Shown piece by piece: positions 19,505-19,527 of a DNA stretch of 64,000 nt. Source of the stretch: Escherichia coli (GTDB lineage: Bacteria; Pseudomonadota; Gammaproteobacteria; Enterobacterales; Enterobacteriaceae); NCBI RefSeq assembly GCF_030013205.1, contig NZ_CP122648.1, one strand, 5' to 3'. Numbering within the stretch: position 1 is the stretch's first letter; each line of letters begins with the position of its first letter. The notes below the pieces were generated by a model that did no database searches, was not told the origin of the DNA, and worked only from the letters and a program-made list of their open reading frames with translations. Position numbers and translations under genes: made by a program.

Positions 19505-19527
19505 ACTTTAGTTACAACATCCTTATT
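19505..19527 (-). other. Ter site (TerB position) in the tus promoter region
   Basis: Minus strand reads AATAAGGATGTTGTAACTAAAGT, containing the Ter core GTTGTAACTA, 11 bp upstream of the tus start. Confidence 0.85.

Follow-up and report, generated by a model that had tools for sequence, protein, structure and literature searches.

The window analysed here, a 64-kb (64,000-nucleotide) stretch of Escherichia coli DNA, contains the replication terminator TerB in the interval between rstB and tus, with fumC convergent with tus on the far side (Table 1). The plus strand at the site reads ACTTTAGTTACAACATCCTTATT, the reverse complement of which is AATAAGGATGTTGTAACTAAAGT. When up to three mismatches were allowed, this 23-mer matched the 64-kb window only once, with no match expected in shuffled sequence, and a scan of the window with a looser Ter consensus gave a zero-mismatch match at this site alone. 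Position 23 lies 10 nt from the tus ATG (19494), the same spacing as in K-12 and in keeping with the placement that is specific to TerB, about 11 bp upstream of the tus start within the promoter region. An earlier note on this DNA had called the site TerB upstream of tus, and the exact 23-mer, its distance from the ATG and its position between rstB and tus bear this out. A second GTTGTAAC octamer was found within TGCCGGAACGTTGTAACCTGATT at window positions 3218-3240 (+), which also has G at position 6; it was rejected as a Ter site because the rest of the consensus is poorly matched, and chance alone would give about two GTTGTAAC octamers over the 128 kb of the two strands.

Table 1. Features of the TerB locus, numbered from the first base of the window
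Feature	Position	Strand	Basis
fumC, convergent with tus; 4-nt overlap with the tus 3' end, as in K-12	17165..18568	plus	
tus, 309-aa DNA replication terminus site-binding protein, intact	18565..19494	minus	ORF; PDB match; annotated as tus in W13-16
TerB, 23-bp Tus-binding replication terminator, G7 allele AATAAGGATGTTGTAACTAAAGT	19505..19527	minus	exact sequence; position and spacing to tus and rstB as in K-12
Ter position 7, polymorphic base, G here versus T in K-12	19521	minus	direct comparison; population counts
C(6) of the G·C(6) pair, conserved	19522	plus	sequence; role per PMC4499146 and PMC8707476
TGcTATAAA, extended -10-like motif abutting Ter position 1	19527..19535	minus	read from sequence
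rstB, upstream neighbour	19570..20871	minus	shows that the locus has the K-12 order rstAB-TerB-tus-fumC

The mechanical list of open reading frames starts tus four codons early, at a GTG; translation from the ATG at 19494 gives the 309-aa protein. This protein is identical to crystallised Tus (PDB 1ECR/2I06) at 300 of 309 residues over its full length (E = 2e-202), and the nine substitutions relative to K-12 are I23A, H27E, V35I, H116R, K119Q, A188T, A221T, N225D and G270S. Residues E49, I79, K89, F140, H144, G149, A173, R198, R232 and Q250, whose functional roles we take to be those given by Mulcair (2006) and Neylon (2000), are all unchanged, and they include I79, F140, H144, G149 and R198, reportedly the cytosine-pocket residues of Tus in the account of Mulcair et al. 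from 2006. A genuine Ter site is expected to have an intact cognate tus in which these pocket residues are unchanged, and this is what the locus holds.

The 3.2-kb tus-rstAB stretch of the window is 100% identical to that of E. coli O139:H1 W13-16 (wild boar, France), and the comparison with the W13-16 chromosome yielded 6 differences in 49,959 bases; by that count, the source of the window is evidently very closely related to W13-16. The tus region (18500-21700) is otherwise an unusual allele, at least 99% identical over 3.2 kb in only 20 of 5,424 genomes. The Tus states H27E, H116R, K119Q and N225D are also present in E. albertii and E. whittamii. The sequence suggests that the window tus allele is old, or else was gained by recombination.

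We compared the site directly with the reference. TerB of K-12 MG1655, read from NC_000913.3 at 1684226-1684248, is AATAAGTATGTTGTAACTAAAGT; 22 of its 23 bases, including G·C(6) and positions 8-23, are the same as in the window, and the sole difference is at position 7, which is G in the window (C on the plus strand at 19521) and T in K-12. The earlier note had given K-12 TerB as differing by one base and had proposed to abandon the point if K-12 carried the same base; its K-12 sequence was right, since K-12 carries T. The gene order rstB-TerB-tus-fumC, the 10-nt spacer and the orientation are likewise shared with K-12, whereas the flanking DNA and the tus coding sequence have diverged, the latter to 94.5% nucleotide identity with nine amino-acid changes. 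The remark that TerC has G at the variant position was also correct, as K-12 TerC reads ATATAGGATGTTGTAACTAATAT and carries G7. Like the window TerB, TerC has G·C(6) and the same core positions 8-20, but it lies between yneE and uxaB, not beside tus, and differs at outer positions 2-4 and 21-23. K-12 TerG presumably carries G7 as well. Neither TerC nor TerG is a clean control for G7, since each differs from TerB at further positions.

The orientation of the site was read against the expected direction of replication. Of 15 overlapping 8-kb bins, 14 show a positive plus-strand GC skew, among them every bin around TerB, so that the normal fork would run from low to high coordinates and meet the permissive (position-23) end of the site first. 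The site stands in the same relation to tus and rstB as in K-12; the window does not extend to dif or to the opposing Ter sites. A G·C pair at position 6 is required of a Ter site and supplies the C(6) that locks into Tus (PMC4499146), and the window has G at position 6 of the minus strand and C at 19522 of the plus strand. A fork arriving at the position-1 end unwinds G·C(6), upon which C(6) docks in a pocket of Tus and locks the complex, whereas a fork from the other Ter end displaces Tus (PMC4499146, PMC8707476). By analogy with these accounts, Tus encoded immediately downstream would bind the window TerB, and a fork from the rstB side (high coordinates) would meet the non-permissive face and unwind G·C(6); C(6) would then dock in the Tus pocket and stop that fork, while the usual fork from the tus side would pass. 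Polar fork arrest at this site is thus predicted from its identity to characterised sites. The fork-trap element beside tus is intact in the window strain.

TerB overlaps the tus promoter, where Tus represses its own gene (PMC8347550, PMC8707476). The arrangement of a Ter site upstream of tus also occurs in at least 50 species representatives. At the window locus, Tus bound at TerB would be expected from this literature to repress tus as well, because the site overlaps the promoter. The extended -10-like motif next to Ter position 1, TGcTATAAA, is conserved at each of the 11 E. coli loci that were aligned with one another, and we infer that it is a putative part of the tus promoter overlapped by TerB; a consensus promoter scan of 19400-19700 gave no canonical sigma-70 site. 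If TGcTATAAA does act as a promoter, position 7 would lie close to the tus transcription start. Separately, the rstB-tus intergenic region upstream of TerB has a perfect TTGACA at 19546-19551 (minus strand; CTCTGTTTGACATTAC), about 19 nt past the rstB stop codon, where K-12 has CTGACA (CTCTGCCTGACACTAC). This hexamer is probably not a promoter element, as there is no -10-like hexamer 16-18 nt after it.

The frequency of the variant base was determined in complete E. coli genomes by megablast with a 55-mer centred on it, a design in which the 28-nt word seeds only where that base matches. G7 was found in 2,781 and T7 in 2,631 of 5,426 genomes, in a collection skewed to clinical and outbreak lineages such that percentages describe the database and not natural populations; the two states together make up 5,412 of the 5,424 genomes that have the locus. 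Exact alleles were then counted with a 33-mer (5 + 23 + 5), in which each 28-nt word covers all 23 Ter bases. The K-12-type TerB allele is present in 2,346 genomes (including DH5alpha, C600, O104:H4 and O111), the window type in 1,372 genomes of unrelated pathotypes (including CFT073, Nissle 1917, ST131 EC958 and ATCC 25922) and an ATTAAGG-type allele, ATTAAGGATGTTGTAACTAAAGT, in 1,262 (including O157:H7, APEC O78 and ATCC 11303). Direct reads of 11 genomes agree with these megablast classes: T7 in K-12, O103:H2 and CUVET18-1475; AATAAGG in W13-16, O166:H15, GN04275, AH21C082 and CFT073; and ATTAAGG in O157:H7 SS17, ES5 and WP7-S17. One of about 5,430 tus/TerB matches sits on a plasmid-labelled record, which probably reflects a labelling or assembly fault of that replicon.

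All 23 bases of the window site are identical in CFT073, Nissle 1917 and ST131 EC958, while the tus coding sequences of CFT073, GN04275 and AH21C082 are about 94-95% identical to that of the window. TerB of O157:H7, APEC O78 and ATCC 11303 resembles the window site in having G7 at the same locus but differs from it by a T at position 2, an outer, variable position without direct Tus contact (PMC8347550).

These counts bear on what the G represents. The earlier note had raised the possibility that it might be a strain marker, which would fit a private, recent mutation of the isolate or its clone, and the rarity of the surrounding 3.2-kb tus-rstAB region, for which W13-16 is the best match, would be in line with such an origin. 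The base itself, however, is common to 2,781 genomes and the exact 23-mer to 1,372, and these two counts refute a private mutation; G7 also occurs in E. whittamii and two further non-coli Escherichia lineages. Nor do we give any credence to a sequencing or assembly error in the window, in favour of which nothing was counted: thousands of complete assemblies made independently have this base, and the window and the finished W13-16 chromosome, which differ so little overall, agree throughout the TerB region. Since about half of complete E. coli genomes carry it, G7 is not a strain marker but a common, old polymorphism of large lineages that marks a tus-region allele class. Of the interpretation in the earlier note, then, the identity of the site, the one-base difference, the G of TerC and the expectation that Tus binding is probably unaffected (discussed below) all stand, and only the strain marker falls.

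Variation at position 7 has been described before. Goodall et al. (2021) set the ter sites of phylogroups A, B1, B2, D and E side by side, found that position 7 varies and treated positions 1-5, 7 and 19-23 as variable (PMC8347550); variability at this position among phylogroups is therefore already published, and the present finding is an ordinary one. Neither the bound nor the locked structure shows a base-specific Tus contact at position 7, and mutagenesis cited in the same paper showed little effect of position-7 changes on Tus binding (PMC8347550). Furthermore, TerA-E and TerG are the six strongly Tus-bound, high-affinity sites (Toft et al., 2021; PMC8707476), a set that includes both of the G7 sites named above, TerC and TerG. 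G·C(6) is unchanged from K-12, as are core positions 8-20, and the T7/G7 difference, which falls at the only core position that varies, probably leaves the working of TerB unchanged, as judged from these published data.

The alternative is that G7 has functional meaning, altering lock formation or lock strength at TerB or else tus expression and autoregulation, in which case the amount of Tus or the strength of the back-up barrier would vary between lineages. Position 7 is within the Tus footprint and adjoins C(6) (PMC4499146), with C(7) on the displaced strand; TerB overlaps the tus promoter; TGcTATAAA abuts Ter position 1 and would place position 7 about 6 nt downstream of TATAAA and near +1; and both states are held at high frequency. 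A small quantitative effect may be conceivable on these grounds, given that position 7 adjoins the base that flips, C(6), and that the predicted start of tus transcription is close by. Against this, however, are the mutagenesis and structural data reported by Goodall et al. and the strong binding of the natural G7 sites TerC and TerG; two frequent alleles are, moreover, expected from deep-lineage linkage without selection, and the promoter argument is conjecture. We therefore consider a functional role of G7 very unlikely, and likewise think it improbable that the two states are not neutral in the sense that G7 measurably changes lock kinetics or tus autoregulation. We are strongly confident, instead, that the site at 19505-19527 is an ordinary chromosomal TerB with one of three common natural alleles and that its position-7 difference is probably neutral; no result of the analysis speaks against this reading.

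The history of the two states was examined in species-representative genomes by scanning for a Ter core followed at 8-20 nt by a tus start (ATG NNN CGN TAY GA). This returned at least 50 tus-proximal Ter loci, an outgroup sample that is broad but incomplete in that E. fergusonii, S. enterica subsp. enterica and the main E. coli representative are not among them. T7 is found in 46 of the 50 listed loci, including those of Citrobacter, Salmonella arizonae and diarizonae, E. albertii, Cedecea, Erwinia and Proteus; one Pantoea has C7, and G7 occurs in three, namely E. whittamii, Escherichia sp. E1V33 and SCPM-O-B-8794 (deposited as E. coli). A neighbor-joining tree of tus coding sequences (15 sequences, 930 nt, without bootstrap) groups the three T7 E. 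coli alleles closely together, in a subclade that sits within the G7 alleles, and places the G7 Escherichia lineages outside E. coli. Recombination is evident, with APEC O78 and ATCC 11303 carrying a G7 allele. The most parsimonious reading, which we offer as a lead, is that G7 would have arisen in Escherichia after the split from E. albertii and that the K-12-type T7 would be a secondary reversal. Given the position of the T7 E. coli alleles within the G7 ones in this small tree, T7 of K-12 may be derived within E. coli, and the reference TerB of nearly all biochemistry may not be the ancestral E. coli site. Escherichia sp. MOD1-EC7003 was also observed to carry a K-12-type TerB (T7), with an 11-nt rather than a 10-nt spacer to the tus start; its extracted tus frame translated to only 145 aa.

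The significance of the window TerB variant is very small, and it opens no new question. Tus-Ter biochemistry and eukaryotic fork-barrier tools nevertheless take as their standard the K-12 TerB, which is only one of three common alleles and is found in about 43% of sequenced complete genomes; this calls for caution when genomes are scanned for Ter sites with the exact K-12 sequence. T7 versus G7 also offers a cheap natural experiment on lock kinetics or tus autoregulation; were G7 not neutral, about half of E. coli would have a back-up terminator or a Tus level unlike that of K-12.

Several additional observations were made in the course of the comparisons. In about 10 of the 5,424 genomes, coverage of the tus-rstAB query is below 80%. 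E. coli FDAARGOS_1251 (NZ_CP069445.1, 973191-980561), a complete genome from a human isolate, has neither tus nor TerB and is missing two-thirds of rstB at the 3' end; directly next to fumC stands what is left of rstB, a truncated pseudogene. The tus-less state of this E. coli arose either naturally or in culture. In the window itself, G+C falls to 0.45-0.47 over about 51000-64000, a region that corresponds to a Qin-like defective prophage in W13-16. The W13-16 element includes genes for an integrase, an excisionase and an exonuclease, dicABC, ydfABCD, relBE, hokD and rem, together with several pseudogenes and an ISNCY transposase fragment; it is ordinary, since K-12 has an element of the same kind.
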